Shown here: positions 1 to 36,812 of the stretch, piece by piece
Position numbering within the stretch: position 1 is the first letter of the stretch
Layout: each line of letters starts with the position of its first letter
Assembly (NCBI GenBank): GCA_965215565.1
Contig: CBDCDZ010000004.1
Coordinates: 384,001 to 448,000 of the forward strand
Reading direction: 5' to 3'
DNA: 64,000 bases
Source of the DNA: Trueperaceae bacterium
GTDB lineage: Bacteria > Deinococcota > Deinococci > Deinococcales > Trueperaceae
Position numbers and translations under genes: made by a program
Notes under the pieces: model-generated
Told to the model about the DNA's origin: nothing
The model's input: the letters and a program-made list of their open reading frames with translations, nothing else
The model's database searches: none

Positions 1-1
1 G

Positions 2-169
2 CGCGAGGGGCAAGCGGTTACTACTGACACCTTGCTCGGTTACGTCGGCGCGAGCGGCAACGCCAAGAACACACCGCCGCATCTGCACCTGGGCGTCTCG
101 AGCGGCAATCCTCTAACGTGTGAGCGGGTTGTCTACGACCCTCTACCTAAACTCGTGGACCGGGAGTAG
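2..169 (+). CDS. M23 family metallopeptidase, 3' end (runs off window)
   Basis: Frame 2 reads ...LLGYVGASGNAKNTPPHLHLGV...DPLP*, the typical M23 HxH C-terminal motif; TAG at 167-169. Confidence 0.8.
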   Translation, partial: REGQAVTTDTLLGYVGASGNAKNTPPHLHLGVSSGNPLTCERVVYDPLPKLVDRE

Positions 170-200
170 GTCTGGCATTGTTTATTCCTTCGGCCTTAAC

Positions 201-234
201 GTTGTGCGTGTGATGCGCGCATCTCGTGCACAAC
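201..234. repeat. 34-bp quasi-palindromic site, copy 1
   Basis: GTTGTGCGTGTGAT-GCGCGC-ATCTCGTGCACAAC. Confidence 0.85.
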
Positions 235-281
235 GTCGGTGCGTTCAAGGTATACAGCACCTTCAACGGCGGCTTACAACT

Positions 282-545
282 TTAACGAAGTCTCAAAAGC
301 TCTCGCACGCGCTGGTGCGGCAGGGCGTGCGCAGTCCGCCCCTCCGCACCCATGGTGGTCTTGGCAGCTACGAGAGCGTTGACGATCGCCTCCTCGACCC
401 CTTGCACAGTCCCTTCGAACAGCGGCGTCATCAGGCCGCTACTCAGCATCCCGAGCGCCGTTACACCCGAGCGCCTCGCCGCGCCGGAGTTCGCGGTTGA
501 GAACGCCAAGAAGATATCGCCAGAGGTGTGGGCGCCGTAGCTGCG
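282..545 (-). pseudogene. C-terminal fragment of DmpA/P1 (S58) peptidase
   Basis: SGDIFLAFSTAN and PLFEGTVQGVEEAIVNAL motifs; N-terminal part absent. Confidence 0.75.
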
Positions 546-598
546 GAAGAGTTGCGAGCGCCTGACGCACAAGGTTAGCTTTGAGAACCTCAGAAGGT

Positions 599-1297
599 CT
601 AGCGCCGCCCTGTCGGGTCCATCGGTGGCTCTTCAGAAAGAGGGCGCATAATATCCGCAAGGTCGTCACGGTCTTTGTAGACGGTGCCGTGTAGCGGACA
701 AACCGTGCGGAGCGGCTTGTCGAAAACACGCCACTGCTCCGCTAAGCGTTCAGTCATCGCTTCAGTCGGTCCCGGTGAACGCTCCAAGCGCAGCGGCTCC
801 TGGTCTTGGCGCGGCCCTGGTCCCACCGCGCAGTCGCCTGCTAAGAGAACGCCGCCGTGCGCAGACCAGTAGAGTATCACGGAGCCCGCAGTGTGTCCGG
901 GAAAGTGGATAGGCTCGAGCCCCGCCTCTTCAAGCACCTCATCCGTCACGGGGTCATCGAACTCAACGCCCGCCTGTTTTGCCTCTGGGTGAGATGCGTC
1001 GGCTGGGTGGAGCAGGATGAGTACGCCGTAGGTCTCTCGCAGCGCCCCGTACGCGTCACCTTGCCCAGCGACGTTGCGGTGCGAGAGGACGAGAACTTTA
1101 GGTGGGTAGCCCTCCTCCGCCAGCTTGTGTATGCCGCCGAGCGTCCAGTTGTAAGGTGCATCGAAGAGAACGGAGTAACCCTCAAAGAGCACGGCGAACG
1201 AATTCGGCGGGCGTCCGCTGCCGGTTGTCGCGCCCGCTTGAGGTAGGAGTACGAGGTCGTCGTAGAGATACTGGGCTTTAGGGGAGAAGAAATCCAT
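599..1297 (-). CDS. MBL-fold metallo-hydrolase (degenerate metal motif)
   Basis: LVLSHRN, HPAD, PGHTAGS, LLAGD and PLHG motifs. Confidence 0.7.
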   Translation of the reverse strand: MDFFSPKAQYLYDDLVLLPQAGATTGSGRPPNSFAVLFEGYSVLFDAPYNWTLGGIHKLAEEGYPPKVLVLSHRNVAGQGDAYGALRETYGVLILLHPADASHPEAKQAGVEFDDPVTDEVLEEAGLEPIHFPGHTAGSVILYWSAHGGVLLAGDCAVGPGPRQDQEPLRLERSPGPTEAMTERLAEQWRVFDKPLRTVCPLHGTVYKDRDDLADIMRPLSEEPPMDPTGRR

Positions 1298-1322
1298 GCA
1301 GGTCCTCCGAATTCGAGCTTAG

Positions 1323-1520
1323 CTAAGTGGTACCAAGAATATCACGCAAGCTCTTGCCCGCCTTCTCGCCAGCTTCCTCGGCACTTAACTCGTCAAAGGC
1401 GTCGGTGAAGACCTCCACCCCGACCGAATTGAGCCCGCCCGTTTGTGACAGGATGCGCACCACGGTTTTAAGGTCGAAGTCGCCCTCGCCCGGCGCTTTG
1501 CGGAAGTGCAAGAGGTCGTA
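1323..1520 (-). pseudogene. C-terminal fragment of sugar-phosphate isomerase/epimerase (TIM barrel)
   Basis: RKAPGEGDFDL and VGVEVF motifs without an N-terminus. Confidence 0.6.
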
Positions 1521-1866
1521 GGGGTGCGTTAGACTTCCTATCCCTGCGTGATCAAGGCGACAATGCAACCCGGCTCAACCGGTCGCCGTGGGCGTGGCTA
1601 GCCCACCCGGTAGCTCTCTCAACATAGGCTTTACTTCCCCCCGTGATAATACGAAAGCAAACTAGGCCGAACCGAAGACAGTTTTTCTGCTTCTGCCGCT
1701 GATTGTCGGAGTACTGCACGAATATTAATTTTCTTACAGTTCGCTTACTCTCCCGTAAATATGGCAGGCTTAGAACGCCGCGATCGTTGAGATTTGGAAA
1801 ATCGCTGTGCCGCTGTTTTGCGTGCCGGTCGCGTAAAATCTCGAGTTCGAATTTGAGTTTCAGCGT

Positions 1867-1887
1867 GGTGACCTTTTTAAGGTCACC
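1867..1887. promoter_or_regulatory. Inverted repeat upstream of nuclease gene, possible operator
   Basis: GGTGACCTT-TTT-AAGGTCACC. Confidence 0.3.
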
Positions 1888-2017
1888 CGACTCGGGAAGA
1901 AGTGCTAGGCGAAGATCCGCGTCGTTTCCATGACGGTCTACTGAAAGTGTACGATTAGAGTTGTAGCCGTATCCACAGTGACAGCGTGGGGGACTCTACA
2001 AGGTGGAGGTTTCAAAG

Positions 2018-5000
2018 GTGAAACGTGTACAAATTGTGCTGGCTGCCCTCTTCATAGGGCTGCTGGCAGCTTGTGAGAGGGACGTAGCTTCGGAGGTGCC
2101 ACTCTCGGACCTCGCGGCGAGCGACCTCTTCTTCTCCGAATATGTCGAGGGCAGCAGCTCCAACAAAGCGCTGGAGGTCTATAACGGCACCGGCGTGCCG
2201 GTCGACCTCTCGAGCTACTCGGTCGAGATTTACTTCAACGGCAACAGCTCTGCCGGTACGACTATCGACCTGATCGGCGTGGTCGCCGATGGCGACGTAT
2301 TCGTGCTCGCCGACGACGGCGCTGACCCGGCGATCCTGGCTGAAACTGATCAGACCAGTACAAGCAACTTCTTCAACGGCGACGACGCTATCGTGCTCCG
2401 CAACGACGGCGAGGTCGTCGACGCCTTCGGCCGAGTCGGTACCGACCCCGGTTTGCAGTTCGGCAGCGGCGATACCGGCTCTCAGAACAACACGCTGCGC
2501 CGCGCTGCGGACACCATGTCGGGTGACACCGACCCGAACGACGCCTTCGACCCGGCTACCGAGTACGAGGGTTTCGGACAAGACAACTTCGGTGACTTGG
2601 GCATGTTTGATGGTAGCGACCCAGCCCCGTCGATCGTCATCAACGAGGTGGACGCCGACACGCCGGGCTCCGACAGCGCCGAGTTCGTCGAGCTGTACGA
2701 TGGCGGCGCAGGCAGCACCCCGCTTGACGGGCTCGTGGTGGTGTTCTTCAACGGTTCGGACGACGCGTCCTACGAGGCGTTCGACCTAGACGGCCAGACC
2801 ACGGATGAGAACGGTTTCTTCGTCCTCGGTAACCCGGACGTAGCCAACGTCGACCTGGTTTTTGACCCCGGCAACTCTGGGGCGTTGCAAAATGGGGCGG
2901 ACGCGGGGGCGCTCTACCAAGGCGACGCGTCTGACTTCCCCAACGACACGCCGGTCACGACTGACAACCTCGTGGACGCCATCGTGTACGACACCGACGA
3001 CGGCGGCGACAGCGGTTTGCTGGACGGTCTCGGCGAAACCACTCAGTTCAACGAAGATGCGAATAATGACAAGGACAACGAGTCCAACGCTCGCGTGCCA
3101 GACGGGATGGGCGAGTTCACCGCCCAGGCACCGACGCCGGGCGCATCTAATGCTGGCGACGGCGGTAACGGAGGCGGCGACGGCGGTGGTGAGATCGGCC
3201 AGTGCGGTACCGACGCGACACTCATCAGCGCGGTGCAGGGCAGCGGCGCGACCAGCCCGTTGGTCGGCCAGACTGTCGTTATCGAAGGCGTCGTGGTCGG
3301 CGACTTTCAAGCAAGTGACGATGGCATGTTCGGCGACCTGGACGGTTTCCACGTGCAGGAAGAAGTTACCGATTACGACGCGGATGAAGAAACGTCCGAG
3401 GGCGTCTTCGTCTTCACGGGCAGCAGCGACGTGCCGGACGTGCAGGTGGGCCAGACGGTGCGCGTGCGCGGGACAGTCGGCGAATTCGAGAGTTCCGGCT
3501 CCTCGCAGACGCAGATCACCGACCCTACTGTGGTCATCTGCAGTGAGGGTGTCTTGCCCCCGGTGACCGACATTACCTTGCCCGTTCCCCCACGCAACTT
3601 CCTAGAGCGTTACGAAGGCATGTACGTACGCTTCCCGCAGAGCCTCGCCATCAGCGAGTACTTCAACTTCGACCGCTTCGGCGAGATCGTCCTGGCGCGG
3701 CCCCTGCCGGGCGAGGACCGCCCCTACCAGCCGACGGCGGTGAACGAGCCCGGCTCGGAAGCGGCGGCCGAGCGAGACGAAGACAACCGCCTCGCCCGCA
3801 TCACGCTGGACGACGGGCGCAGCAATCAGAACCCCGACCCGGCGCGTCACCCTAACGGCGAGGTGTTCGACCTGGACAACCGCTTCCGCGGCGGTGACCT
3901 CGTACAGAACGCGCTGGGCGTCCTGGATAACACCTTCGGTATCTACCGCGTCCAGCCGACCCAGGGCGCGAACTACACTCGCGTCAACCCGCGCCCGGAG
4001 GAGCCCGAGGCGGTCGGCGGCTCCCTCAAAGTCGCGAGCTTCAACGTGCTCAACTACTTTAACGGCGACGGTCAGGGTGGCGGCTTCCCCACCTCACGCG
4101 GCGCGGACGACCCCGAGGAGTTCCAGCGCCAAGAGGCTAAGATCGTCGCGTCCATCGTCGGTACCGGGGCGGACGTCGTTGGCTTGATCGAAATCGAGAA
4201 CGACCCGGCGGGCGAGACCAGCGCCCTCGACGACCTGACCGAGGCGCTCAACGCGGAGGCGGGCGCGGGCACCTACGACTACATCCGTACTGGTGATATC
4301 GGCACGGACGAGATCAAAGTGGCCTTCATCTACAAGCCGGGTACGGTCACTCCGATCGGCGACCCTGCGGTGCTCACCGAGTTTGAAGGCCGCGACTTCG
4401 TCGACCCGCGCGACATCGGACCCAAGAACCGCCCGGCCTTGGCCCAGACCTTCCGCGAGGAGGCGACCGGCGGCGTACTCACGGTGGTCGTCAACCACTT
4501 TAAGTCGAAGGGCTCGAGCTGCGGTCCGGGCGACGACGACCCGGATCAGGGCAACTGTAACGGCACACGCGCCGACGCTGCCGACATCCTGGTGGACTGG
4601 CTCGCCAGCGACCCCACCGGCAGCGGCGATCCTGACGTACTCGTCATTGGCGACCTCAATGCCTACGACAAGGAAGACCCCATCGACCAGGTTAAGGAAG
4701 GTGCGGACGACGCGGACGGCACCGAGGACGATTACGCCGACCTCAACCTCGCGTTCGAGGGTGAACTGGCCTACTCCTATGTCTTTAGCGGTCAGTTCGG
4801 CTACCTCGACTATGCGTTAGCGAACCAGGCGCTCTTGGACCAGGTCACGGGCCTCACCGAGTGGCACATCAACGCCGACGAGCCGGATATCCTGGACTAT
4901 GACACTACATTCAAAAAAGACCCGCAGGACGCGCTCTTTGAACCCAACCCCTACCGCTCCTCCGATCACGATCCGGTCATCGTAGGGCTCGACCTGACCC

Positions 5001-5422
5001 CGAGCGACGCTGAGGCACCCGTCATCACCCTGAAGCGCTCAGGTCAGACCCTCTTCCCGCCCAACCATAAGTACCGGACGCTCGACCTCGCGCAGATCAT
5101 CGCCTCGGTGAGTGACAACGTGTCCGACCTCTCTGTGTCCGACGTGGTCATCACTCGCGTCACCAGCGACGAGCCGGAGAACGGCACCGGAGACGGCAAT
5201 ACAGATGACGACATCGTCCTCGAGGGCTGCCAGGTGGTGGAGCTCCGGGCCGAGCGGAGCGGGCCTGGGGACGGCCGCGTCTACACGGTCGAGATTGCGG
5301 TGCAAGACCGGGCGGGCAACGTCGGCACGGCCAGCTACCGGGTCGAGGTGCCTAAAGGACGTAAGGACGCGGCTATTGACAGCGGCACGGCCTATAGCGT
5401 CACCGGGTGCGAGCTTCCATAG
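2018..5422 (+). CDS. ExeM/NucH-family extracellular endonuclease lipoprotein (lamin-tail domains, OB fold, EEP domain, C-terminal Ig-like domain)
   Basis: Lipobox LAAC; FFSEYVEGSSSNKALE; VASFNVLNYFNG, NHFKSKG, GDLNAY, LDY and RSSDHDP motifs; GGAGG before GTG 2018. Confidence 0.9.
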   Translation: MKRVQIVLAALFIGLLAACERDVASEVPLSDLAASDLFFSEYVEGSSSNKALEVYNGTGVPVDLSSYSVEIYFNGNSSAGTTIDLIGVVADGDVFVLADDGADPAILAETDQTSTSNFFNGDDAIVLRNDGEVVDAFGRVGTDPGLQFGSGDTGSQNNTLRRAADTMSGDTDPNDAFDPATEYEGFGQDNFGDLGMFDGSDPAPSIVINEVDADTPGSDSAEFVELYDGGAGSTPLDGLVVVFFNGSDDASYEAFDLDGQTTDENGFFVLGNPDVANVDLVFDPGNSGALQNGADAGALYQGDASDFPNDTPVTTDNLVDAIVYDTDDGGDSGLLDGLGETTQFNEDANNDKDNESNARVPDGMGEFTAQAPTPGASNAGDGGNGGGDGGGEIGQCGTDATLISAVQGSGATSPLVGQTVVIEGVVVGDFQASDDGMFGDLDGFHVQEEVTDYDADEETSEGVFVFTGSSDVPDVQVGQTVRVRGTVGEFESSGSSQTQITDPTVVICSEGVLPPVTDITLPVPPRNFLERYEGMYVRFPQSLAISEYFNFDRFGEIVLARPLPGEDRPYQPTAVNEPGSEAAAERDEDNRLARITLDDGRSNQNPDPARHPNGEVFDLDNRFRGGDLVQNALGVLDNTFGIYRVQPTQGANYTRVNPRPEEPEAVGGSLKVASFNVLNYFNGDGQGGGFPTSRGADDPEEFQRQEAKIVASIVGTGADVVGLIEIENDPAGETSALDDLTEALNAEAGAGTYDYIRTGDIGTDEIKVAFIYKPGTVTPIGDPAVLTEFEGRDFVDPRDIGPKNRPALAQTFREEATGGVLTVVVNHFKSKGSSCGPGDDDPDQGNCNGTRADAADILVDWLASDPTGSGDPDVLVIGDLNAYDKEDPIDQVKEGADDADGTEDDYADLNLAFEGELAYSYVFSGQFGYLDYALANQALLDQVTGLTEWHINADEPDILDYDTTFKKDPQDALFEPNPYRSSDHDPVIVGLDLTPSDAEAPVITLKRSGQTLFPPNHKYRTLDLAQIIASVSDNVSDLSVSDVVITRVTSDEPENGTGDGNTDDDIVLEGCQVVELRAERSGPGDGRVYTVEIAVQDRAGNVGTASYRVEVPKGRKDAAIDSGTAYSVTGCELP

Positions 5423-5487
5423 GCTCTCGGGATATAGATGGAAAGGTAAGCTGAAGGCTGCTGAGCTTCAACCTAGATGCTGAACTT

Positions 5488-5520
5488 CAACCTCCCCGTC
5501 TTACCGGGGAGGTTGCTTTG
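5488..5520 (+). terminator. Probable intrinsic terminator
   Basis: CAACCTCCCCG/CGGGGAGGTTG stem followed by CTTTG. Confidence 0.55.
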
Positions 5521-5575
5521 ACGCTCGGTAGACCCACTGATGATAAGGCTAGTTAGCCTCGGCAGACCTAACTTC

Positions 5576-5609
5576 GCTGTGCGGCGAACGCGCGCAACAG
5601 CCGTAGAAG
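5576..5609. repeat. 34-bp site, copy 2 (upstream of tyrosine recombinase)
   Basis: GCTGTGCGGCGAAC-GCGCGC-AACAGCCGTAGAAG. Confidence 0.85.
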
Positions 5610-5674
5610 CCCATTACTTCCCCAAGAACGATTCAACTTAAACCTCCGTGCAGACTACAGATCGGAGGTTTTTC

Positions 5675-6565
5675 ATGGACAAACAAGAAGCATCCACTTT
5701 GGCAAGCTGCGTTCAGACGTACTTAAAAGCCCGAAAGTTGGACGGCTACAGCGATAAAACGCTCTACTCCTATAGACTGCATCTGAATCATTTAGCCGCA
5801 GATTTAGGTGATGCTACTCCTATTAGCATGGTTAAGCTCGAGCACCTCCGCACCCACCTCACCAGCCTGACGCACCTGCAAACCTCGAGCCTAGCGAACA
5901 AGGTTCGCGCCCTTAAAGCGTTTTTCAAGTGGCTTTACGAGGAAGAGGTGTTGGAGCGTAACCCCGCGTTGAAGCTGAGGGAGCCGCGCTTGCCAGCTAG
6001 AATACCCAAAGCGCTCTCAGTTGAAGAAGTGGAGCTGCTGCGTGACGCCTGCGAGAGTTTATTGGAGCACGCCCTAGTTGAGTTCTTTTTTGCGACTGGC
6101 TGCAGGGTTAGCGAAATTCATCAACTGGACCGTATCGACCTCGACTGGCTGCGCCGGAGCGTCGTGGTCCTCGGCAAGGGCAACAAGGAGCGTGAGGTGT
6201 ACTTCGGGGCGAAGGCGGCGCTGTGGCTCAAGCGCTACTTGGACAACCGCTCAGACAACACTTTAGCACTGTTCGTCACGAAGCGACGGAGACGTCAGCA
6301 TAGCGGGACTTTAGAACATCAGCGCCTGAGCACCTCGCAAATGCAGCGCATCTTTAAGCGGGTCGCTAAGCGGTGCGAGTTGGAGGAGAAAGTGACGCCG
6401 CACGTGTTGCGCCATACACTCGCCACGCTGCTTCTCAATCAAGGTGCGCCCATCGCTGCCGTGCAATCCATTCTCGGGCACGCCTCACCCACGACTACGC
6501 AGCTCTACGTCAACCTATCCGGGGAATCAAGGCAGATGCTCTATAGGAGGCACTTCCCGCAATGA
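5675..6565 (+). CDS. Tyrosine recombinase, XerC/XerD-like
   Basis: N-terminal SAM-like domain; TGCRVSE, GKGNKER, HVLRHTLAT, ILGHAS and TTQLY give the R-K-H-R-H-Y set; GGAGG before ATG 5675. Confidence 0.92.
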   Translation: MDKQEASTLASCVQTYLKARKLDGYSDKTLYSYRLHLNHLAADLGDATPISMVKLEHLRTHLTSLTHLQTSSLANKVRALKAFFKWLYEEEVLERNPALKLREPRLPARIPKALSVEEVELLRDACESLLEHALVEFFFATGCRVSEIHQLDRIDLDWLRRSVVVLGKGNKEREVYFGAKAALWLKRYLDNRSDNTLALFVTKRRRRQHSGTLEHQRLSTSQMQRIFKRVAKRCELEEKVTPHVLRHTLATLLLNQGAPIAAVQSILGHASPTTTQLYVNLSGESRQMLYRRHFPQ

Positions 6566-6626
6566 ACCGCCGCACCTCAGCAAGCACGGGTTTTTGCGCT
6601 ACAATGTTATGTAACTAGGAGTATTC

Positions 6627-6896
6627 ATGGACGCAGCCGCGCTACCCCACCTACCTAAGCTTACAGAGTTGCCGATAAGTCTGCCCACTGACGGTGCGAT
6701 CAATATCGAGATTGTTCAAGGTGTACCTACCTTTCGAGCTTCAACTGCCGTGGTGGGTAGGATCGAGCAGCTCCTCAAGAAAGAGCAAGAAAAGGGGTTG
6801 AGCGTCTCTGAAGCGGATGAACTGGCTCAGTATGAAGAGGTCGATGACTACCTCAGCCATCTGAACCGCGTCGTTTGTAATTTGCAGAGCGCTTAG
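6627..6896 (+). CDS. Small hypothetical protein, putative partner/antitoxin of the downstream HNH gene
   Basis: AGGAG RBS; RIEQLLKKEQEKGLSVSEADEL helical motif of a type often seen before HNH genes. Confidence 0.65.
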   Translation: MDAAALPHLPKLTELPISLPTDGAINIEIVQGVPTFRASTAVVGRIEQLLKKEQEKGLSVSEADELAQYEEVDDYLSHLNRVVCNLQSA

Positions 6897-6903
6897 CGCG
6901 GGA

Positions 6904-7469
6904 GTGGCGCGACCTAAAGTACCCATCGCTCTAAGAACCGAAGTCAGAGAGCGCGCAAAGTCATTATGCGAGTACTGCCACACCGACGAGACGTGGCAGT
7001 ACGTTCCTTTTACTATCGACCACGTTGTTCCGGTCAGTCTAGGTGGTTCTATAGCAGGAGAGAACCTTGCACTTGCCTGTTTCCACTGCAATCGGTACAA
7101 GGGCGATGCGACTCAGGCTACTGACTCTTCTACGGGTCAAACCGCGCAACTATAGCAGGTATCATCTGGTTTGAGCCAATCTCACACGATAGAACAACGG
7201 CTAGCACGCACATTGTCGGATGATATCTGCGCTATTTCAGTCCAATACTTTTGATAACCGCTATATTTAACCCGAGAACGCAGCGCTGGGCAGAGCACTT
7301 CATCTGGTCGAGCGACAAGCTACGAATCGTTGCGTTGACAGCTACAGGTAGAGCGACATTGCGTGCCTTGAATCTCAACCGTGAGCGGGTACTGCGCATA
7401 CGCGAAGCGGATGTCGCTGTTGGACAGCATCCACCTCATGACGACCCGGTACAGAGTAAAGAGGTTTAG
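6904..7469 (+). pseudogene. HNH endonuclease interrupted by a MITE
   Basis: CEYC, IDHVVP, NLALACFHCN, then FNPRTQRWAEHF; removing 7153-7265 restores the frame (TAQL-FNPR). Confidence 0.88.
7151..7265. mobile_element. MITE with TA duplication
   Basis: Ends TATAGCAGGTATC / GATAACCGCTATA; homolog at 63090-63283. Confidence 0.85.
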
Positions 7470-7471
7470 GT

Positions 7472-7505
7472 GCTATGCGCGTGATGTGCGCGTTAAGCGC
7501 AGAAG
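7472..7505. repeat. 34-bp site, copy 3
   Basis: GCTATGCGCGTGAT-GTGCGC-GTTAAGCGCAGAAG. Confidence 0.8.
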
Positions 7506-7532
7506 CCGTTGGTCAGCTTTCGCTGATAGGTT

Positions 7533-7970
7533 CTAGGCTCCGTCTTTACTCTCCAGCCCCTTATAACATTTTGTTAGCAGCGCACACGCTTGCTCGATCT
7601 CCACTTGTGTCAGCTCCCGCGTCATCCGCTTTTCAACCTCAGCTACCAAACTGTGAGCATGTTCCAAGAGCGCTTGCCCCTCAGCAGTCGGTTTCACCCG
7701 CTGAATACGTCCATGCTCGGGGTGCGGCGAGCGCTCTAGCAGCGCGCCACGCTCAAGCCCGATCACGATCTGGTACATAGTCTGAGGTGTTACGAAACAG
7801 CGGCGAGCAAGTTCGGCATTTGAGAGCCCCTGCTCCTTCACCAGCTCGCCCAACGCGGCGTACTGCGGGGTCGTAAGGTCTAGTGTCGCGAGCGCTGCAT
7901 CCATGTTGCTGCGCAGCGCCGACTGAGCGCGCTTGAGGAGATAGCCGAGAGGATCAGAGGTCAGGTTCAT
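7533..7970 (-). CDS. MarR family transcriptional regulator
   Basis: LTTPQYAAL, SNAELARRCFVTPQT, LERGALLERSPHPEHGR. Confidence 0.9.
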   Translation of the reverse strand: MNLTSDPLGYLLKRAQSALRSNMDAALATLDLTTPQYAALGELVKEQGLSNAELARRCFVTPQTMYQIVIGLERGALLERSPHPEHGRIQRVKPTAEGQALLEHAHSLVAEVEKRMTRELTQVEIEQACALLTKCYKGLESKDGA

Positions 7971-7982
7971 GGCTTGGCATTA

Positions 7983-8029
7983 TATCAGGGTACTGATAAT
8001 CTAGCTACAAGTTATCAGGGTACTGATAA
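7983..8029. promoter_or_regulatory. Two identical palindromic operators (likely MarR)
   Basis: TATCAG-GGTA-CTGATA at 7983 and 8013 between divergent genes. Confidence 0.75.
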
Positions 8030-8043
8030 ATAGGAGGTCAAGA

Positions 8044-8418
8044 ATGAATGTAAAAACGAAGGTTGACGGTCCCGACTTCATTGCGCTACAATGGCGCGAT
8101 TTGGACCCTGGCAAACGTTTCTACCACGAGACGCTAGGGCTAGCACTCGCCCCGCAGAGCCCGCCTGGTGCAGTTGTTTTCGCTACCGAGCATATCACCT
8201 TTGCCGTGCGGACGCCGCTCGTCAATCTAGACCTCACCCCACATCGGGGTTATGGCGTGGCACTCTGGTTCAAGGTAGACGACAGCGCGAAGCTACGTGA
8301 CCATCTGGTTGACAAGGGGGTTGAGGTCACGTCGGACCTAGTAGACGGTCCCTTTGGCAAGACCTTTTCCATCCGGGACCCTGAGGGTTACCTCATCACC
8401 CTTCACGACTGTGGCTGA
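8044..8418 (+). CDS. VOC/glyoxalase family protein
   Basis: RFYHETLGL and DGPFGKTFSIRDPEGYLI. Confidence 0.88.
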   Translation: MNVKTKVDGPDFIALQWRDLDPGKRFYHETLGLALAPQSPPGAVVFATEHITFAVRTPLVNLDLTPHRGYGVALWFKVDDSAKLRDHLVDKGVEVTSDLVDGPFGKTFSIRDPEGYLITLHDCG

Positions 8419-8863
8419 GGCGCATTACTGGGTCAACACAGTGTCGCGCGATCACGTATGGGCAGGGGTCGAGGGCGGCTTCACCCAAGCGGATCACGGC
8501 AAGCGCACACGCCTCGAGCGTCTAAGAAGAGGGAACATGCTGATTTTCTACTCTCCTAGAACTGCTTTTAGGGGTGGGGAGGTGCTGCAGGCGTTTACCG
8601 CCTTGGGCGAAATCATAGACAACGAGCCCTATCAAGTCGAGATGACGTCCGACTTTCATCCCTGGCGACGTAAGGTGAGCTTCGAAGGGGTGAAAGAAGC
8701 ACCGGTACGTCCTTTACTAGAAGACCTTACCTTCGTTACTGATAAACGGAAGTGGGGCTTCCCCTTTCGGCGCGGGCTCTTCGAGATCAGCCCGCAGGAC
8801 TTCGAGCGGATCGCTAAGGCGATGGGCGCACAGGTCGAGATGCCAGCACAGCTATTCGGTTGA
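8411..8863 (+). CDS. EVE domain protein
   Basis: YWVNTVSRDHV, GFTQADHGK, FYSPRT, RRGLFEISPQDF; GTG start overlaps the VOC stop. Confidence 0.85.
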   Translation: MAEAHYWVNTVSRDHVWAGVEGGFTQADHGKRTRLERLRRGNMLIFYSPRTAFRGGEVLQAFTALGEIIDNEPYQVEMTSDFHPWRRKVSFEGVKEAPVRPLLEDLTFVTDKRKWGFPFRRGLFEISPQDFERIAKAMGAQVEMPAQLFG

Positions 8864-8872
8864 ACTATGGTG

Positions 8873-8906
8873 CTTCTGCGACTAACACGCGCGGTTGACG
8901 CATTGC
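8873..8906. repeat. 34-bp site, copy 4
   Basis: CTTCTGCGACTAAC-ACGCGC-GGTTGACGCATTGC. Confidence 0.75.
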
Positions 8907-9101
8907 GCCGTCCCCCGCCAGTTGCACAAAACGCCATCCGCAATAGCTGTCACTTTTTCAGTGTTCGAGGGGCGCAAAGGCGCAGATGAACGCATACTCT
9001 TTTCACTGCACAGCCGAATCAGGCGCTTAGGTTGGCGCGTTTAGCGCCTTTCAGTTCCCCGCCTTCGCTGCGGCGATTTCGACGATGGTGCCGCAGAAAC
9101 A

Positions 9102-9422
9102 CTACGCTCGCGCCAACGCCATGCGCTCGCTCGCAGGTTCCGCTTCAGGTATCGCCGCCCCTATTCTAGCGGGTGTACTGCTGAGCTTCACGAACCTAAC
9201 GCTTATTGCGTGGTCGAAGTGACCATGCGTGAGGATAATCGCTTCTGGTTTCTTCTCTCCGTAGCGCACTTCAGTCGCCTCGTGGAGATAGCGGCTCGAG
9301 TTAGGCGGCCCCGTGTCGACCAGTACCCAATCCCCTTGCGGCGTATCAATCAGGTAAGCATTGACGAAGACGGTAGGCACGCGCACGACGCCCGGTACGA
9401 CCATTTCTGTTTTGACGTTCAT
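9102..9422 (-). pseudogene. N-terminal fragment of MBL-fold hydrolase
   Basis: VNAYLI, VLVDTG, IILTHGHFDH, then similarity is lost near 9205. Confidence 0.75.
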
Positions 9423-9588
9423 AGTTGTTCCTCCTCGAGCTTAGGGTAGCACCTGAACGGGGGCTCTGGACCTGACGTCCCGGAATAGCCTTGAAGACCG
9501 ACCTAGTCAGAGCAAAAGCTTAGCTTGGTATAGACCGCTCATTTTGCGCCGCTCTTAGTCAAGAGCAGGGGTGGAATCGGGCGGTGGC

Positions 9589-9622
9589 GCTGTGCAGCAG
9601 ACGCGCGCGTCTCTTGCAGAGG
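9589..9622. repeat. 34-bp site, copy 5
   Basis: GCTGTGCAGCAGAC-GCGCGC-GTCTCTTGCAGAGG. Confidence 0.85.
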
Positions 9623-9873
9623 CAAGAGCTAGCTCTTGCCCTCGGCCTTCGGTATCTTCAGCAACTTCCGATCGCTCTTTTACTTATCTAAACCACCGCT
9701 CTAAGAGCGGCGGTTTCACATGAAGAGAGTGCGGCTAAAGAAGAGACCAGCAGTGTTAAGTACTTCGACTTCAATAATCTAAACTATCTCGAGGAAGTTT
9801 TTGCGCTCAGAACGAACTTCGTTGACATTCTCTAGTTTAGGTTATTTCGACACACCTACTTAGAACAACAGTA

Positions 9874-10920
9874 CTAGGATAGTAACGTGAGCGCCACGTG
9901 CGCCCGCGTGGACAGCCCAAGCTTTTTTAAGGTGTGTTCGGTGTGGCGTCTTGCAGTATTGAAGCTCACACCTAAGTTCTCAGCTATCTGCTTGTCGGTA
10001 AGCCCTTTTGCCAGCAACAGCGCGACCTCAACTTGCCGGGGCGTGAGGGCGTAGCGCGTTTTTAGAGTGCCGGGGTCAGGTAGAGTACCTAGTTGACGCG
10101 ACACGCTGAGCAAGTAGCGAGGCTCTGCGGCTCCACCTTGCAAGGCGATCCTCAGTTCGTAAATGGCTAACCCTGTCGAGACGCGGCGGCGCGGCGTAAG
10201 CGGTTCCTCGCTCAGCGTTTTCACCGAACGCGCCGCCGCAGCCATGACCCGGCCAAAGCCTGTGTCGCTTTCGGCGAGCTGTGCGAATACCTCGTTTCGC
10301 CGCAGCTCTTTACCTTGCGTGTTCAATAGGGCGAGCGGTAAGGGAGCGGCGAGCGGGTCGGGTCCCGCACGCCAAGCGGCGTGCAGGTGCGCCCCTGCCC
10401 CAAACGCCGCCAGCACAAGGTCGATAAGTTGGTACCCCTGCTCGCCGTAAAGCCGAGCTGAGTCTTTTTCAAAGGCGCACAAGATGGATAGCTCCCCGGT
10501 GGGCGTAGCAACCGAGGGTCCTAGCAAGTAATTAAGTCCTGCGGGCACGAATACGTCTTGATAGGTGGGGGAGCGCTCGAGCTTCTCCCTGGCAAACGTG
10601 TCTATGAACACGGTAGGACCTCGCTCCAAGCGTGCCTGTACGAACGCTTGCAAGTGCGGGTCAGAATTGACACTGGGCTCACGTAGCTGCTTATAGCGCC
10701 CTCCTAAAGTGAGTAGCATCTCCTTATCGGTATCGTCGCTACTCAGCGCCGCGTCACCATTGACCTCAAAAAACACGGTGTGGTCCGCGCCCAGCAGGTC
10801 GCGCAGGGCGCGGTTACATGCTAAGTGGTACGACTCAGAATTTGCGAACTCCGGGCGCGACAAGAACACACGCTGCGCCCGGACGACCCGCTCGAGGTCG
10901 GCGCTACTCAGGTAAGGCAT
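9874..10920 (-). CDS. LuxR-type HTH transcriptional regulator
   Basis: C-terminal LTPRQVEVALLLAKGLTDKQIAENLGVSFNTARRH. Confidence 0.85.
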   Translation of the reverse strand: MPYLSSADLERVVRAQRVFLSRPEFANSESYHLACNRALRDLLGADHTVFFEVNGDAALSSDDTDKEMLLTLGGRYKQLREPSVNSDPHLQAFVQARLERGPTVFIDTFAREKLERSPTYQDVFVPAGLNYLLGPSVATPTGELSILCAFEKDSARLYGEQGYQLIDLVLAAFGAGAHLHAAWRAGPDPLAAPLPLALLNTQGKELRRNEVFAQLAESDTGFGRVMAAAARSVKTLSEEPLTPRRRVSTGLAIYELRIALQGGAAEPRYLLSVSRQLGTLPDPGTLKTRYALTPRQVEVALLLAKGLTDKQIAENLGVSFNTARRHTEHTLKKLGLSTRAHVALTLLS

Positions 10921-11139
10921 CTTCTCCCTAACTATCCAAAGATTTACTGTTTAAGTCTTTTTAGTGCAATTGCCCTATTGGTTTCGTAGTCTACCAAGTT
11001 TTAGGGTGGAGAAGTTGCCAAAACGTTTACGTCACCAAGGTAGTCAACGGGGATAGTGGACAGCTCACGCTGCCACCGCGAAGACCGATGGCTTTGGCAA
11101 CGTAACGTCATCTTTAGCGTCGCACTTTAAGGAGGCAGT

Positions 11140-12699
11140 ATGATTTTTTCTAAGCTAGCTCGCGGATACCTTCACACGCTCTGTCTATCTCTACTTTTCC
11201 TAACCGCTTGCAGCTCCGGCAGTCCCGACGAGCCCACGAACACTGCACCTAGCGTGAACGCAGGCGCTGACCAGACGGTGACGGTCGGCGCGATGGTCGA
11301 CCTAGCGGGCAACGCTACCGACGCCGAAGGCGACAATCTCACTTACACCTGGTCCTTCACCGACAAGCCGGACGGCAGCGACGCTGCATTTGACGATGAC
11401 GACAACGCAAACGCCCGCTTCACACCGGACGTTGTGGGGGAGTACGAGGTGAGGCTCAGCGTCTCCGACGGTAACTTGACCGGCAGCGACAGCTTGAGCG
11501 TGACAGCGACCGAAGCGGACGACCCCGGTAATCCCGGCAGCGCGGCCGACGGCTACGAGAATGCAGCTACCACGCTCACCAGCACGCCCAGCGCAGGCGA
11601 CTTTTTCGGCGACGCCGTAGCTATTTCAGGCGACACCGCGCTAGTCGGCGCACCTAGGGAGGAAAGCGTCGGGTTTGCCTACTTCTATACGCGCGGCGCG
11701 GACAGTAGCTGGGGACAGCCACAAAGGGTCAGCGCCAGCACCCCCAGCGGTCGCTTCGGCAGCGCTGTTTCCGTCTCCGGTGACACCGCATTCATAGCCG
11801 CACCCTTCAACGTTCCCGGAATTGAGGATGGTGGCTCAGTCTTCGTGTTCGAACGCAGCGGCGGCACCTGGAGCGAAGTCCAGAAACTCAAAGCGTCCGA
11901 CGTGGAAGAGGGCCAGTTCTTCGGCGATAGTGTGGCCGTGTCTGGTGACTATGCGTTTGTCGGTGCGCCCCGCGACGATGGTGCAGAACAAGATGAGGGC
12001 GCGGCTTACGTGTTCGAGCGCAGCGGCGGTAGCTGGGCGCAGGTTCAGAAGCTGACGCTTACAGGCACTGCTTTGTCGTTCGGTCGTGCGGTTGCTGTTT
12101 CGGGTACGCAAGCAGTCGTAAGCACCCAAAGGGAAGATCAGGGCGAGAGTATTCTCGAGGGCACTGCTTATGTCTATGAAAGAACAGACGGTAGCTGGAA
12201 CCAAACCGCTCAACTGATGCCCGCTACTCCAAAGCTGCTAGGGGAGTTTGGCGACTCGGTTGCCATAGACGGAAATACCATCGTCGTCGGTCAAGAAACG
12301 GATACCTCTGGCGCAGACGGTGACGGCGGTGCAGCCTATATATTTGTAAAAACGGCTGACACTTGGTCGCAGTCACAAAAGATTAAAGCGAACGACGCTG
12401 TTGAAGATGCGCAGTTCGGTAGCTCTGTAGCAGTTGCAGGGGACTATATCTTGGTCGGCGCACCCTACAACTCGGTCGCCGATTTTTGGGGTGCGGCTTA
12501 CCTGTTCCAGCGTGACGACTCAGGCTTCGCACAGACCAACAGGTATCAAGCAGTTACACCTGCTGACAACGACGGCTTCGGTTATGCTGTCGCCCTGGAC
12601 GCGGGCGGCGCTCTTATCGGCGCACCTTATAGCGACGACGGCGCAGGCGGCGATAACGCAGGCGCGGCTTACACGGTAGGGCGCAGCGCGGCACCTTGA
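11140..12699 (+). CDS. Lipoprotein with PKD/Ig domain and FG-GAP repeat beta-propeller
   Basis: Lipobox LTAC; NTAPSVNAGADQ; repeated FG.SVA.SGD...VGAP. Confidence 0.88.
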   Translation: MIFSKLARGYLHTLCLSLLFLTACSSGSPDEPTNTAPSVNAGADQTVTVGAMVDLAGNATDAEGDNLTYTWSFTDKPDGSDAAFDDDDNANARFTPDVVGEYEVRLSVSDGNLTGSDSLSVTATEADDPGNPGSAADGYENAATTLTSTPSAGDFFGDAVAISGDTALVGAPREESVGFAYFYTRGADSSWGQPQRVSASTPSGRFGSAVSVSGDTAFIAAPFNVPGIEDGGSVFVFERSGGTWSEVQKLKASDVEEGQFFGDSVAVSGDYAFVGAPRDDGAEQDEGAAYVFERSGGSWAQVQKLTLTGTALSFGRAVAVSGTQAVVSTQREDQGESILEGTAYVYERTDGSWNQTAQLMPATPKLLGEFGDSVAIDGNTIVVGQETDTSGADGDGGAAYIFVKTADTWSQSQKIKANDAVEDAQFGSSVAVAGDYILVGAPYNSVADFWGAAYLFQRDDSGFAQTNRYQAVTPADNDGFGYAVALDAGGALIGAPYSDDGAGGDNAGAAYTVGRSAAP

Positions 12700-16822: not shown

Positions 16823-18383
16823 GAGCTTATGTCAAATGTTGTGGATGCGAGTTCAAGCGGCACGTTCCTCTTTGATGCCGTCAATGAATCTGACATCGCG
16901 AATCACATCTTTGAGTAGTTCTGAGCCCTTGAGCCTGAGCCACCTCTTTTCGGCTGCCTGAGCGAGTTTGAATACGAGTGAAAGCATCGTATCGCGGGAG
17001 AGGTTGTTGCGCGTCTTAGCAGTTCTGAGCCTCACGGTGGCGAAGGTAGATTCAACGGGATTCGTGGTTCTAATGTGTGACCAGTGGCGGGCAGGGAAGT
17101 CATAGAAGGTGAGTAGCGCATCATGGTCCTTTTTTAGACACTCCGCCGCTTTGGGGTATTTCTCTCCGTAACTCTCGAGAAAGAGGTCGAAGGCCGTTTC
17201 AGCTTCATGTCGGCCGGCTTGCCGCCATATAGATGTTGTGCAGTGCACGCTTGGCTTTAGGCTGCTGACTTGTAGGCAAGGTGTTCAGAACGTTAGCCGT
17301 CTTATGCACCCAGCAACGTTGTGCTTGGGTCGTGCTGTAGACCTGAGCGAGCGCTTTCCAAAAGCCTAATGCACCGAACTAGGCCCAACGGGCCGGGCTT
17401 TGCCCGTTCTATATCCCCTACAGCGAGCTTGGGGTCGACTGTGAGCCCGCGAGCCTTGAGGTCTAACAAGACTTCTTTCCACGACTGCGTGCTCTCGCGG
17501 TAGCCGTCGGCAATAGCTAACAGCTCTTTTCTACCGTCTTCCGTTGCGCCGATGACGACCAGCACGCAATGTTTAGACTTTTCCATACGCATGTGGAAGT
17601 ACACCCCGTCTACCCGCAAGTAGACGTAACGCTGAGCCGACAAATCGCGCTTTCGCCAGCTCTCAAATTCTTGAGACCACACGCTTTTGAGGCGGCTGAC
17701 CGTCGAGGCTGAAAGTCCAGGCGCGTTACCGCCCAAGAGCGCCGAGAGCGCGTCGAAGAGCCATTAGCAGGGCGTAGGACGCCGTTATAACTGATATAGG
17801 TAGCGATTAGAAGATGATACCTCCTGCTGAGGGCTCCTTTTGAAAGTCGCCCGTAGAAACACCCTTGAGGTACAACCAGGGGATCAGTTCTTCTAAGCTG
17901 GCGCTCCGCCGCAGGTACTTGGGCAAGATGCCTGAGTGAAAGCGAATCTTCTCCGCCTTCGTACGGTCACGTACTTTCACCTGCACTGGACCGATGCCCG
18001 TTTGCACCTCCCGCTCGGGTAAGTAGCCATTATGTACCAGCCACAGGTTACGACTGAAAGCCGGACGCCGTTGGCGTTCACCTGTGCACGCCCCGGTTCA
18101 TCACGTAAGTCCTGATGCTGAGCGAGAAAGCTCTCTACCTCCGCTTCGATCGCCTGCGCCAAGAGCTTTCTTGCTCCCTGCCGCAGTACATCTGTGAGGG
18201 GGTCAGCTATCAGAGCTGGATTCTCTAAAGTCATTACGTTATCGTTTGCCAATAGGTTAGAGCACAGCTCAAAGGCTCTTAGCCTTCACCTGTGGCGTAT
18301 CATTCTTTCTTTTCCCACAATGATTTCAATCATCAGCGGTGATACGCCGCTTTACCTCCGTCCACAACTTTCAGCATAATCTC
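16823..18383 (-). mobile_element. IS256 family element, transposase pseudogene with four small insertions
   Basis: YLKGVSTGDF, DGVYF, IRTTNPVESTFATVRLRT; imperfect IRs GAGCTTATGTCAAATGTTGTGGA vs GAGATTATGCTGAAAGTTGTGGA. Confidence 0.88.
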
Positions 18384-22107: not shown

Positions 22108-22141
22108 CTTCTGCGACGAACGCGCGCAACTGTTGCGTTAG
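22108..22141. repeat. 34-bp site, copy 6 (overlaps GNAT stop codon)
   Basis: CTTCTGCGACGAAC-GCGCGC-AACTGTTGCGTTAG. Confidence 0.85.
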
Positions 22142-22773
22142 CGCATCTCTTGTACAGGTCGCCACATGAACCAGAAGGGCGGTCCGCCGGGTAGCAGGCT
22201 CTCCTCATAGCGGATAATGTTGAAGCCGTGCTTTTCGTAGAGCCGCACATTAGACTCGAGCATCGTCTCCAAGTAGCAGCCATATCCGGTTCTCTCGCTC
22301 CGCCCGAGCCCTTCACGAACTAGATACGATCCAACCCCCTGCCCTTGCTTTTCTTTAATAACACCTAGCACGACCAGATACCAATGAGGCTCCTTAGGGT
22401 GGGCGACGTCGATCACGCTGCCCAGCTTGGCAAGGCGAGGAAAAGCCCGCGGGTCGGCAAGGGCGATACGTAGGAGCGGTAAGGCGGCGCGCACCTGTCG
22501 TCGCAGGGTCATCACCGCGTGACCCGGAGGCAGCCACACCGCTACACCGGCAATACGGTCGTCCTCGAGCGCGACGCTTACGTGTCCGTACCATAGGGCG
22601 TCCGTGAGGGCGACTCGAAAAAAAGCGGGCAGTAGCCTTTTGCGCTTCGCCTTATCAGACCAAACACTCATAAACTGGGGAGCGTCATAGAAGCTCTCAG
22701 CTAAGACCGCTGCGGTCTCGTCTAAGCGCGAACGGTCTGAGAGGTCGAGTATCTGGATGGATGATGGGGTCAT
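22138..22773 (-). CDS. GNAT family N-acetyltransferase
   Basis: HWYLVVLGV, QGQGVGS, YLET, NVRLYEKHGF. Confidence 0.9.
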   Translation of the reverse strand: MTPSSIQILDLSDRSRLDETAAVLAESFYDAPQFMSVWSDKAKRKRLLPAFFRVALTDALWYGHVSVALEDDRIAGVAVWLPPGHAVMTLRRQVRAALPLLRIALADPRAFPRLAKLGSVIDVAHPKEPHWYLVVLGVIKEKQGQGVGSYLVREGLGRSERTGYGCYLETMLESNVRLYEKHGFNIIRYEESLLPGGPPFWFMWRPVQEMR

Positions 22774-22867
22774 AGGGCTACCTCGCCCTTTAGGTTAGCG
22801 CGAGTGCTGCCCCGGCGCATGTGCTGAAGGTCATGCGTCAAAACGTTCTGGAGCTCCTTGATACAGC

Positions 22868-22901
22868 TTAGTGCGACAGACGCGCGCGACTCTCGCATTG
22901 C
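22868..22901. repeat. 34-bp site, copy 7
   Basis: TTAGTGCGACAGAC-GCGCGC-GACTCTCGCATTGC. Confidence 0.8.
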
Positions 22902-22993
22902 GTTCAGGCACCCCTTGAGCCGCCTTCCAGTCGGCGTGGCAAAAAGCGGGCAGTCCTGCCACCAATAGTGGTACAATTGCCAAGAGGTGCAAG

Positions 22994-23386
22994 ATGACCG
23001 TCCAACAGTTAGTTCAAGGCAACAGCACGGAGCGCATTGCAGCAGTTCGCGAAGGACTCTCCTTCGAGAGCTTCGTCACGCTGCGTGAAGCCTTAGACGT
23101 GGGTACAGATGAGCTCGCTCAGCTTTTGGGCATTCCCCGTCGCACGCTGACCAAGCGGCAGAGCGAGGGCGTCTTCAAGCTTGCCGAGAGCAACGCCATC
23201 AGCCGGGTGGCTCGCGTGTACAAGGAAACGCTCGACTTCTTCAGTGATGAGGCAGACACGCTGAGATGGCTTAAAACGCCTCTGCCCGCGCTTGGCGGCG
23301 CACCTTTAAGCTTACTTGATACCGATCCAGGCGCTGACGCGGTGAGTACACTCCTCACTCAGCTCGCTTGGGGCATCTATCCTTGA
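22994..23386 (+). CDS. Xre/MbcA/ParS-type antitoxin
   Basis: LGIPRRTLTKR HTH; WLKTPLPALGGAPLSLLDT..G. Confidence 0.9.
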   Translation: MTVQQLVQGNSTERIAAVREGLSFESFVTLREALDVGTDELAQLLGIPRRTLTKRQSEGVFKLAESNAISRVARVYKETLDFFSDEADTLRWLKTPLPALGGAPLSLLDTDPGADAVSTLLTQLAWGIYP

Positions 23387-23838
23387 TCGTCGCTTGGCGG
23401 CTCACCCACGAGCGCTTCAAAGACCAAGCAGTAAGCGGTAACGGTGGGCTGTTCGCCCCCGGACGTTGGCATAGCCAAGGAAAACGAATTGTATATAGCT
23501 CAAGCAGCTTGGCGCTTGCCACGCTCGAGCTGTTCGTGAACTTGCAGAACAAGCGGCAGCTCGCCCACTATGTCAAGAGCCGAATAGAGATTCCTCAAGA
23601 GCTTACCGAAACCCTAGAGGAAGATGCTCTAAGGACGTTTTTACGGGCTCCCGACCAGTTTGACAGCCGTGGCTACGGCGACTCGTGGCTCGCTGGGGAG
23701 CGAAGCTGTGTACTCCAGGTTCCGAGTCGGGTGGTACCGCAGGAATGGAACTACCTCATCAACCCATTGCACACAGATTTCGAGAAGATCGTCGCCTCGA
23801 CTAGCCTATACGAGGTGGATGAGCGCCTTTTGCTATAA
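23383..23838 (+). CDS. RES domain toxin (MbcT/ParT-like)
   Basis: GRWH, YSSSSLALATLE, VPSRVVPQEWNYLINPLH; TTG overlaps the antitoxin stop. Confidence 0.9.
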   Translation: MIVAWRLTHERFKDQAVSGNGGLFAPGRWHSQGKRIVYSSSSLALATLELFVNLQNKRQLAHYVKSRIEIPQELTETLEEDALRTFLRAPDQFDSRGYGDSWLAGERSCVLQVPSRVVPQEWNYLINPLHTDFEKIVASTSLYEVDERLLL

Positions 23839-23851
23839 AGCAGTAGTCAGA

Positions 23852-23885
23852 GTTGTGCGTGAAACGCGCGCGTCACACGCAGAAG
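23852..23885. repeat. 34-bp site, copy 8
   Basis: GTTGTGCGTGAAAC-GCGCGC-GTCACACGCAGAAG. Confidence 0.85.
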
Positions 23886-27050: not shown

Positions 27051-27542
27051 ATGCTTTGGATGATGCCGTTGGTAGTCAGTTCGCTTCGGAAGGCGTGGCT
27101 AGCGTATTGAGAACCCTGGTCCGAATGATGAACGAGCCCTGCTAAGCTATGGCGCTGCTGGGTTGCCATTGCCAGCGCCGAGCGGGTTAAGTCGTCAGTG
27201 AGCCTTTCTGAGAACGCTCAGCCAATGACTCTGCGACTAAAGAGGTCAAGCGTCATAGCCAGGTAAAGCCAGCCTTCAGCAGTGGCAAGGTAGGTGATGT
27301 CGCTTGCCCAAATAGTATTAGGCTCTGCTGCGCTGAAGTTCTGCTGCACTAAGTTCTCAGCTTTAGGGCGCTGGTGCTTGGAATTTGTCGTGGTTTTATA
27401 TTTTCGTTTCGTTTTACCTCTCAGCCCCGCCGCTTTCATCAGGCGCGCGACGCGCTTGCGTCCAACACTGTGTCCAGCAGCCTTGAGGTCGCTATGGATG
27501 CGCGGCGAGCCATATGTACAACGACTTCCGCAGTGGAACTTA

Positions 27543-28661: not shown

Positions 28662-29146
28662 TTAGTAATCTGCTCGGTGAGCGTTTCGTCCTCCTGCGCT
28701 CGCTTACTTGCAGGGCGTTTCAGCCAATCATAGAAACCGCTCACAGAAACCTGCAACACCTCAGCCATCAAGCTCACTGCCCACTGGCTGCGGTGCTCTC
28801 GGATGAAAGCGTATCTCACGTGCTTTCTTTCGCGAAGAACCCGACTGCCTTTTTTAGAATGTCACGCTCCTGTTTCACTCGCACGAGTTCTTTCTTCAGG
28901 CGCAGATTCTCCTCTTGCTCAGCCGTCAAAGCGACCCTGCCGTTGCCCGGAAACGCCAGCTCACCGCGCTCTTGCGCTTGCTTGCGCCCTTTCTAAAGGC
29001 TATGGTCGGATACGCCCAATTCCTCGGCTATTTGAACCACGCTTACACCCGGTTGCTGGCTTAGCCGCACGGCTTCCCGTTTGAATTCTGCCGTGTAGGT
29101 TCTTCTTGTCATGATGCCTCCATTCTCGCATTAGAGGCTTAACCTA

Positions 29147-36778: not shown

Positions 36779-36812
36779 CTTCTGCGGTTAACGCGCGCGT
36801 TCGCTGCAGAAG
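36779..36812. repeat. 34-bp site, copy 9
   Basis: CTTCTGCGGTTAAC-GCGCGC-GTTCGCTGCAGAAG. Confidence 0.9.

Follow-up and report, generated by a model that had tools for sequence, protein, structure and literature searches.

A 1.9-kb unit within a 64,000-nucleotide stretch of a Trueperaceae genome (positions 384001-448000 of contig C4 of genome G000, which comprises 4.49 Mb in four contigs at 58% G+C; this whole stretch is hereafter the window) appears to be an autonomous cassette bounded by 34-bp palindromic sites, and the Xer-like tyrosine recombinase that it encodes probably recombines the same sites around other cassettes in trans. The unit begins at site 2 (5576-5609), made of the arm GCTGTGCGGCGAAC, the centre GCGCGC and the arm AACAGCCGTAGAAG, and ends at site 3 (7472-7505), which is also the left boundary of a cassette with MarR, glyoxalase and EVE genes that closes at site 4 (8873-8906). 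Between sites 2 and 3, all on the forward strand, lie a leader with a hairpin (5641-5670), the intact recombinase gene (5675-6565; 296 amino acids, aa), a small open reading frame (ORF) of 89 aa and no known family (6627-6896), and an HNH endonuclease gene in two parts (6904-7150 and 7264-7469). The initial annotation of this DNA had placed four sites here, with 65 bp from the end of site 2 to the recombinase ATG and 2 bp from the HNH stop codon to the start of site 3; we recovered all of these. Our reading gave GCTGTGCGGCGAACGCGCGCAACAGCCGTAGAAG at 5576-5609, GCTATGCGCGTGATGTGCGCGTTAAGCGCAGAAG at 7472-7505 and the opposite-strand motif at 8873-8906 and again at 9589-9622 (site 5, also a match to our profile), with the ATG at 5675 and the HNH stop codon at 7467-7469. 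The order of site, recombinase, small ORF, HNH gene and site was also borne out, except that the HNH gene is not whole but split by a 113-bp insertion (7151-7263). The suggestion that the unit stands at the head of an array did not survive. Another site, a near-perfect palindrome matched by both pattern and profile, lies upstream at 201-234 and three more lie just before the window; the unit is thus flanked by sites on both sides and sits inside an island.

Each site consists of two 14-nt inverted arms around a 6-bp centre. Of 38 sites, 33 have GCGCGC as their centre, and the consensus of the 76 half-sites, read up to the axis of symmetry, is nTTvTGCR-nSRRWY-GCG. The six inner bases of the arms come as a small set of variants (ACGAAC, ACAGAC, TGAGTT, AGAGAY and others) that are freely combined left and right. 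Sites with like arms on both sides exist, for example at window positions 201 and 36779 and at C4:1530529, and within a site the left and right halves resemble each other a little more than random pairs do (8.68 of 14 positions, p about 0.03). The two ends of a cassette, compared as possible terminal inverted repeats, were not alike (mean 7.88 of 14 vs 7.99 for random pairs, p 0.62).

The exact pattern of the four annotated sites occurs four times in the genome, all at this locus, a count that is circular because the pattern was derived from those four sites. A degenerate version of this pattern, with up to three mismatches allowed, gave 12 matches in the window; shuffled sequences gave a mean of 2.16 and a maximum of 6, and none of 100 shuffles reached 12. 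With an nhmmer profile of 17 copies we found 43 distinct places genome-wide and kept 38 of them as clear sites, giving about 40 copies in the genome. Twelve are in the window, at 201, 5576, 7472, 8873, 9589, 22108, 22868, 23852, 36779, 42189, 43409 and 44980. The sites are clustered on contig C4 at 22-51 kb, 373-429 kb, 769-771 kb, 1266-1276 kb and 1524-1537 kb, and four or five lie on the 49.7-kb contig C2. By crude gene calls, 29 of the 38 sites fall outside ORFs of at least 80 aa, compared to 47 of 300 random places, and 12 of the 38 are within 30 nt of a stop codon, compared to 10 of 300 random positions. We also observed that the cassette ends at C2:15233, C4:26443, C4:427409 (window 43409) and locus L087 share a motif of about 15 nt (GGTKCRTCC...) directly after a GCAGAAT arm.

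We compared the cassettes and their junctions with related genomes. The segment at 7488-8892 with the MarR, glyoxalase and EVE genes is 97% identical to positions 3462431-3463835 of contig C1 in G035, a genome of the same genus. The match runs from 7488, the middle of site 3, into site 4, and the flanks in G035 are unrelated. Five of the six inter-site segments of a seven-site array elsewhere in G000 (L003) match G035 with 83-98% identity, at 2.67, 0.85, 2.90, 0.86 and 0.22 Mb; the sixth has a match in G003 only, and the block to the left of the first site of this array has its G035 counterpart at 3.43 Mb. A similar scatter, in G035 and G056, is seen for the cassettes at 22108-23885. Within G000 itself, a cassette with TetR, DoxX and FAD monooxygenase genes is present twice (L002:8463-12903 and L003:13768-16728) with 97% identity that starts 2 nt inside a site, and one of the two copies is interrupted by an insertion sequence (IS) carrying a DDE transposase gene.

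The break in homology falls inside the site at the 14 junctions that we compared, one of which is out of register by one base. Moving from the shared cassette outwards, the mismatches amounted to 36/560 (6%) in the cassette-side flank, 15/112 (13%) in the near outer arm, 28/84 (33%) in the near inner arm, 11/84 (13%) in the centre, 44/84 (52%) in the far inner arm, 49/112 (44%) in the far outer arm and 404/560 (72%) in the far flank. The homology between a contig of the public run X1 and the window also ends within site 3, at 7493. These sequence comparisons indicate that the 34-bp sites are real boundaries of mobile cassettes, and this is the strongest result of the analysis. The cassettes carry Xre-RES pairs, GNAT and Fic proteins, GGDEF/EAL proteins, PhoD, beta-lactamase-fold proteins, P450 and regulators; their genes are on both strands, and there are cassettes with their own MarR or TetR regulators. 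A single contig of run X3 departs from L003 at 4544, the end of a site, into sequence that is absent from the assembly and has a motif of the GGTKCRTCC type, which is only a hint of strain heterogeneity.

The recombinase belongs to the tyrosine recombinase superfamily, with a catalytic domain that scores 133 bits against PF00589 (cut-off 27.1, E 1.2e-38) and an N-terminal SAM-like core-binding domain that scores 26.2 bits against PF02899 (cut-off 22.3). Its ATGCR, GKGNK, PHVLRH, LGH and TTQLY stretches align with the motifs of XerD (1a0p), and the R-K-H-R-H/W-Y set, whose six residues are the catalytic ones in XerD, is complete. XerD (1a0p, 2.8e-33) and archaeal XerA-type proteins (2.2e-30) are the closest solved structures, and the protein scores below the NCBIfam equivalog cut-offs of both XerC (206.3 vs 335.15) and XerD (199.2 vs 329.6). 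The ATG at 5675 is conserved and has a GGAGG sequence seven bases upstream; the ORF listing offered a GTG at 5648 as an alternative start. Among six tyrosine recombinase domains in G000, this gene is the sole intact copy of its kind. The other five are a paralog of 87% identity (C4:381238-382116), in which an in-frame TGA replaces the Trp codon of FFKWLYEE, one gene adjacent to a Tn3 transposase gene, a 343-aa integrase, one gene containing a TAG and one gene on contig C1. No protein of G000 reaches the XerC or XerD cut-offs.

The leader of the gene provides the link between this recombinase and the sites. The initial annotation had proposed looking for the 34-bp motif upstream of homologous genes, and nhmmer found a site in five of seven Trueperaceae loci. 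In coordinates that put the ATG at 6001 it was located at 5901-5907, and about 61-66 bp separate its end from the ATG. A degenerate remnant occupies the same leader position in the other two loci and in the G000 paralog, and a variant site with the centre GAGCGC is at this position in both of the two metagenome homologs (70-72% identity) that have upstream sequence. The Trueperaceae homologs are 81-90% identical to the recombinase, with one or two per genome, and conservation among their loci begins at the site and ends exactly at the recombinase stop codon. The Bacillota homologs (Alicyclobacillus, Sulfobacillus and Ferroacidibacillus; 52-60% identity) had no palindrome in common in their upstream sequences, so the evidence for the site-in-leader layout is confined to the Trueperaceae lineage. 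In Ferroacidibacillus organovorans (L022, L023), the 60% identical homolog has an 11-nt direct repeat, GTGCAGTGATG, on either side, one copy upstream and one at the 3' end, and two contigs carry the gene with the same upstream sequence; this homolog may therefore be a very small integrative element.

Between site 2 and the ATG, the leader can form a hairpin of nine pairs (5641-5670; AACCTCCG, a 14-nt loop and CGGAGGTT) that pairs the GGAGG ribosome-binding site at 5664-5668 and is followed by a T-run and the ATG. The hairpin is kept in 11 of 11 sequences, with G-U wobble changes only and no double compensatory change among them. Its position over the ribosome-binding site suggests translational repression of the recombinase. 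The loop at 5649-5662 (beginning TGCAGACTACAG) is almost invariant across nine close homologs and resembles the site arm GTGCAGAC, and it could be a binding element for the recombinase.

We searched a set of 61 Trueperaceae genomes, of which one (G033, flagged as unpublished) was counted in these tallies only, for the recombinase and for the sites separately. The recombinase was found at an E value of 1e-60 or better in five of the 61 genomes (G000, G035, G056, G003 and G054), with one or two copies in each. We counted the core pattern of the sites, YGCR-N6-GCGCGC-N6-YGCR, against a reversed control, and the counts were 32 vs 10 in G000, 55 vs 10 in G035, 44 vs 5 in G056, 18 vs 12 in G003 and 17 vs 11 in G038; no other genome exceeded its control by more than 5. 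An excess of more than 20 was thus restricted to G000, G035 and G056, and all three carry the recombinase.

We surveyed the stretch from the recombinase to the next site in nine copies and recovered an Xre-RES pair in four of them (the G000 paralog, L007, L008 and L011), a YhcG-type PDDEXK nuclease in two (L009 and L010), a small ORF with an HNH gene in two (the window and L012) and an ORF of no known kind in one (L006), where the next cassette has a small ORF with an HNH gene. The window copy of the HNH gene, which is PtuB-like (Pfam HNH, 8.6e-13), was called as two ORF pieces (6904-7155 and 7251-7469). Intact homologs in G038 (150 aa) and L006 are contiguous across the joint, and in a contig of the unrelated run X1 the base at 7264 follows that at 7150 with nothing in between, indicating that 7151-7263 is an insertion of 113 bp. 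This MITE-like sequence (miniature inverted-repeat transposable element) is a high-copy short repeat with 151 BLAST hits in G000 and many copies in relatives; its insertion point in the HNH gene is a TA, and it is without clear terminal inverted repeats. PADLOC matched the intact G038 homolog as PtuB. The small ORF is tightly coupled to the HNH gene, an arrangement that recurs in G038, and it has no match in Pfam, NCBIfam or PADLOC and falls in unnamed clusters only in a protein atlas. Its earlier label as an antitoxin therefore did not gain a family match, and its circumstantial support is that the slot behind the recombinase is filled by known or possible addiction modules. The HNH partner in the window has decayed and is either a passenger or a stabiliser. 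We dropped a sequence at about 6594-6607, in the gap separating the recombinase from the small ORF, that resembles the left arm of a site: none of the other loci has it, and about 0.1 such matches would be expected by chance.

In pursuing how such a unit might work, we picture the arms as binding places for recombinase subunits of a single kind and the 6-bp centre as the region of strand exchange, on the pattern of Xer/dif and dif modules; any two sites could then give excision or deletion, integration or inversion. GCGCGC is its own reverse complement, so the sites would lack polarity and any pair of them could recombine, which would explain the cassettes in both orientations, the mixed arms and the lack of an alternation of the C/D type. 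On this view the autonomous member would be the recombinase cassette, whose enzyme would move the other cassettes in trans, and the leader hairpin would keep expression of the recombinase low. The gene pair behind the recombinase (Xre-RES, nuclease, or small ORF and HNH) would act as a stabilising addiction module, one that has decayed in the window. The initial annotation had offered the gene as either a candidate for the cognate recombinase or a passenger cassette, and both halves are right: a cassette carries the gene, and its product is the strongest candidate enzyme, given the sites in its leader and the fact that no other enzyme is so linked. A wider proposal, for which we see about even chances, is that this is a previously undescribed cassette-exchange system of Deinococcota, in which a 2-kb autonomous cassette (recombinase, self-repressing leader and addiction pair) captures, excises, inverts and exchanges dozens of non-autonomous cassettes via polarity-free double-strand sites of 34 bp with GCGCGC as the crossover region, with traffic among islands of the chromosome, a plasmid-like contig and related species, and that it is an analogue of integrons arisen independently from an Xer-like ancestor.

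Several observations weigh against a recombinase that acts on these sites in trans, and some of them would fit the view that another enzyme (a host factor, the serine recombinase of contig C2 or another tyrosine recombinase) recombines the sites, the Xer-like gene being a passenger or an element that inserts at them. We regard this view as unlikely. The genomes G038 and G032 have seven and two perfect sites of the 32-nt pattern and no homolog of the recombinase at an E value of 1e-10 (G011 also has none at this threshold), which suggests that sites can persist without the recombinase or be served by something else. Conversely, G054 has the recombinase without an excess of sites (7 vs 7, and 8 vs 9 in a second count). 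The site-rich genomes with the recombinase are of one genus, so their co-occurrence is close to a single observation and statistically weak. The gene itself lies inside a cassette like any cargo, and two of its family copies are damaged (the TGA in the G000 paralog and a TAA at codon 4 of a G035 copy). The one serine recombinase, a resolvase gene on C2, lies between the sites of that contig and could be an alternative enzyme. It is, however, single and not adjacent to a site; the arrays show no link to any further recombinase, and the remaining tyrosine recombinases are either broken or associated with Tn3. In favour of the Xer-like protein, a site, variant or remnant keeps a fixed position in the leader of every homolog examined across 70-90% protein identity, with the site variant changing along with the protein lineage.

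Two further points weigh against the main reading. The cargo switches directly after the recombinase stop codon, where there is no site. In addition, at seven of the 13 usable junctions the cassette's own inner six arm bases differ between genomes that match in its outer eight arm bases and flank. This is not what a simple exchange at the 6-bp centre would give, and it looks as if strand exchange sometimes takes place at the boundary between outer and inner arm; inner-arm exchange at about half of the junctions could reveal a variant geometry of strand exchange. We also looked for site-to-site joints of excision or inversion in the public runs X1-X4 (window 1-12000) and in X2 and X3 (the L003 array) and found none, a search that covered assembled contigs only and thus says nothing about excision.

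The palindromes might instead be repetitive extragenic palindrome (REP)-like or regulatory intergenic elements, such as operators or hairpins at transcript ends, with the apparent boundaries produced by homologous recombination or chance. Their intergenic placement, often just past a stop codon as counted above, and their potential to fold as hairpins would suit such elements. However, the copies number only about 40 and occur in clusters; there is no T-run terminator (neither an intrinsic terminator nor a sigma-70-like promoter was predicted in window 5400-7600) and no Rfam family was matched in window 5000-10000. REP sequences are high-copy extragenic palindromes that flank a Y1 gene for their associated tyrosine transposase (RAYT), and this arrangement is not matched in G000 either: no RAYT-type gene is near the sites, and the single Y1 transposase gene (PF01797, C4:3786234) is about 0.6 Mb from the nearest listed site (C4:3168410). 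Whole cassettes are found at unrelated places with homology ending inside 34 bp at the 14 junctions, and 34 bp is very short for RecA-dependent exchange, which counts against homologous recombination. We consider this explanation improbable, more so than that of another enzyme.

An integron, with IntI, attI and attC cassettes, is the least probable of the explanations and we give it almost no weight. The system does share with integrons a tyrosine recombinase gene that lies next to a site, short cassettes arranged in arrays and carrying accessory and toxin-antitoxin genes, and the occurrence of a cassette in different contexts in different genomes. Known attC sites are imperfect palindromes of 57-141 bp with R'', L'', L' and R' boxes, and integron cassettes follow the promoter Pc in one orientation. 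By contrast, the sites described here are symmetric, measure 34 bp and look like double-strand sites instead of folded ones, the cassettes share neither a promoter nor an orientation and carry regulators of their own, and homology breaks near the centre of the site and not at one edge. The recombinase gene forms part of a cassette within the array and lacks an IntI signature; it falls far below the cut-offs of the integron integrase models TIGR02249 (108.6 vs 265) and PRK15417 (63.3 vs 435), which it matched in two separate stretches. The missing IntI score, the absence of attC and the mixed orientation refute membership among integrons.

The closest analogue, as judged from comparison, is the dif module system of Acinetobacter, in which modules bounded by pdif sites with a 6-bp spacer are shuffled by XerC/XerD and frequently carry toxin-antitoxin cargo (PMC13141974). 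Both systems have discrete modules between sites with a 6-bp centre and crossovers within the sites, and both show shuffling, inversion, loss and exchange between replicons, toxin-antitoxin cargo and sites of mixed origin at junctions. The two differ in that the site here is 34 bp (14+6+14) whereas pdif is 28 bp (11+6+11), in that a single arm consensus with variants takes the place of distinct XerC and XerD arms and of the C/D alternation, and in that the Xer-like recombinase is module-borne here whereas housekeeping XerC/XerD serve there. The centre in our sites is also one conserved palindrome, and the sites are mostly chromosomal in a Deinococcota bacterium. XerC, XerD and XerA give the best sequence matches to the recombinase and share its two-domain layout and catalytic residues, but it is not a housekeeping gene with a single dif: it scores below the Xer equivalog cut-offs, is found in five of 61 genomes, lies in a mosaic island and is accompanied by about 40 sites.

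Cre/loxP and FLP/FRT share with this system the use of one kind of recombinase and a 34-bp site with two inverted arms around a short centre. The loxP and FRT sites have asymmetric 8-bp spacers that give polarity, and these systems serve plasmid or phage maintenance. The symmetric centre and the cassette arrays set the present sites apart, and the relatedness is distant, at the family level only.

A full-text literature search, with a limited library and limited terms, found no description of this cassette system. Cassette systems based on site-specific recombination have so far been known mainly as integrons and Acinetobacter dif modules; if the proposal is true, a third such system would mean that this organisation of accessory genes arose more than once, here in another phylum. 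The sites and cassettes also offer a handle on the genome plasticity of Trueperaceae, with cargo that includes toxin-antitoxin pairs, signalling enzymes, phosphatases, regulators and beta-lactamase-fold proteins. If active, the 296-aa recombinase and its 34-bp site could serve as an orthogonal recombination tool.

The remainder of the window contains further cassettes and other elements. The three sites at 22108, 22868 and 23852 (22108-23885) bound a GNAT cassette and an Xre-RES toxin-antitoxin cassette, and the four at 36779, 42189, 43409 and 44980 (36779-45013) bound further cassettes, one with a beta-lactamase-fold protein. An IS110-family transposase gene (37038-37751) begins 225 bp after site 36779. 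Upstream of the recombinase unit, positions 2003-5422 encode a large secreted nuclease with a lamin-tail domain and an endonuclease/exonuclease/phosphatase fold; a paralog of 67% identity is on contig C2 (L005:8327-11704), 272 bp after a site. Just after site 5, at 9756-9862, is a second short repeat of about 107 bp, with 13 hits in G000 and several copies in G035. Fragments of Mutator-family and rve/DDE transposase genes are found inside the island at 16853-17733 and 27218-29813, and a Tn3-family transposase gene (682 bits vs a cut-off of 500) lies with a divergent 251-aa tyrosine recombinase gene at 51777-55678 in a TnpI-like layout.

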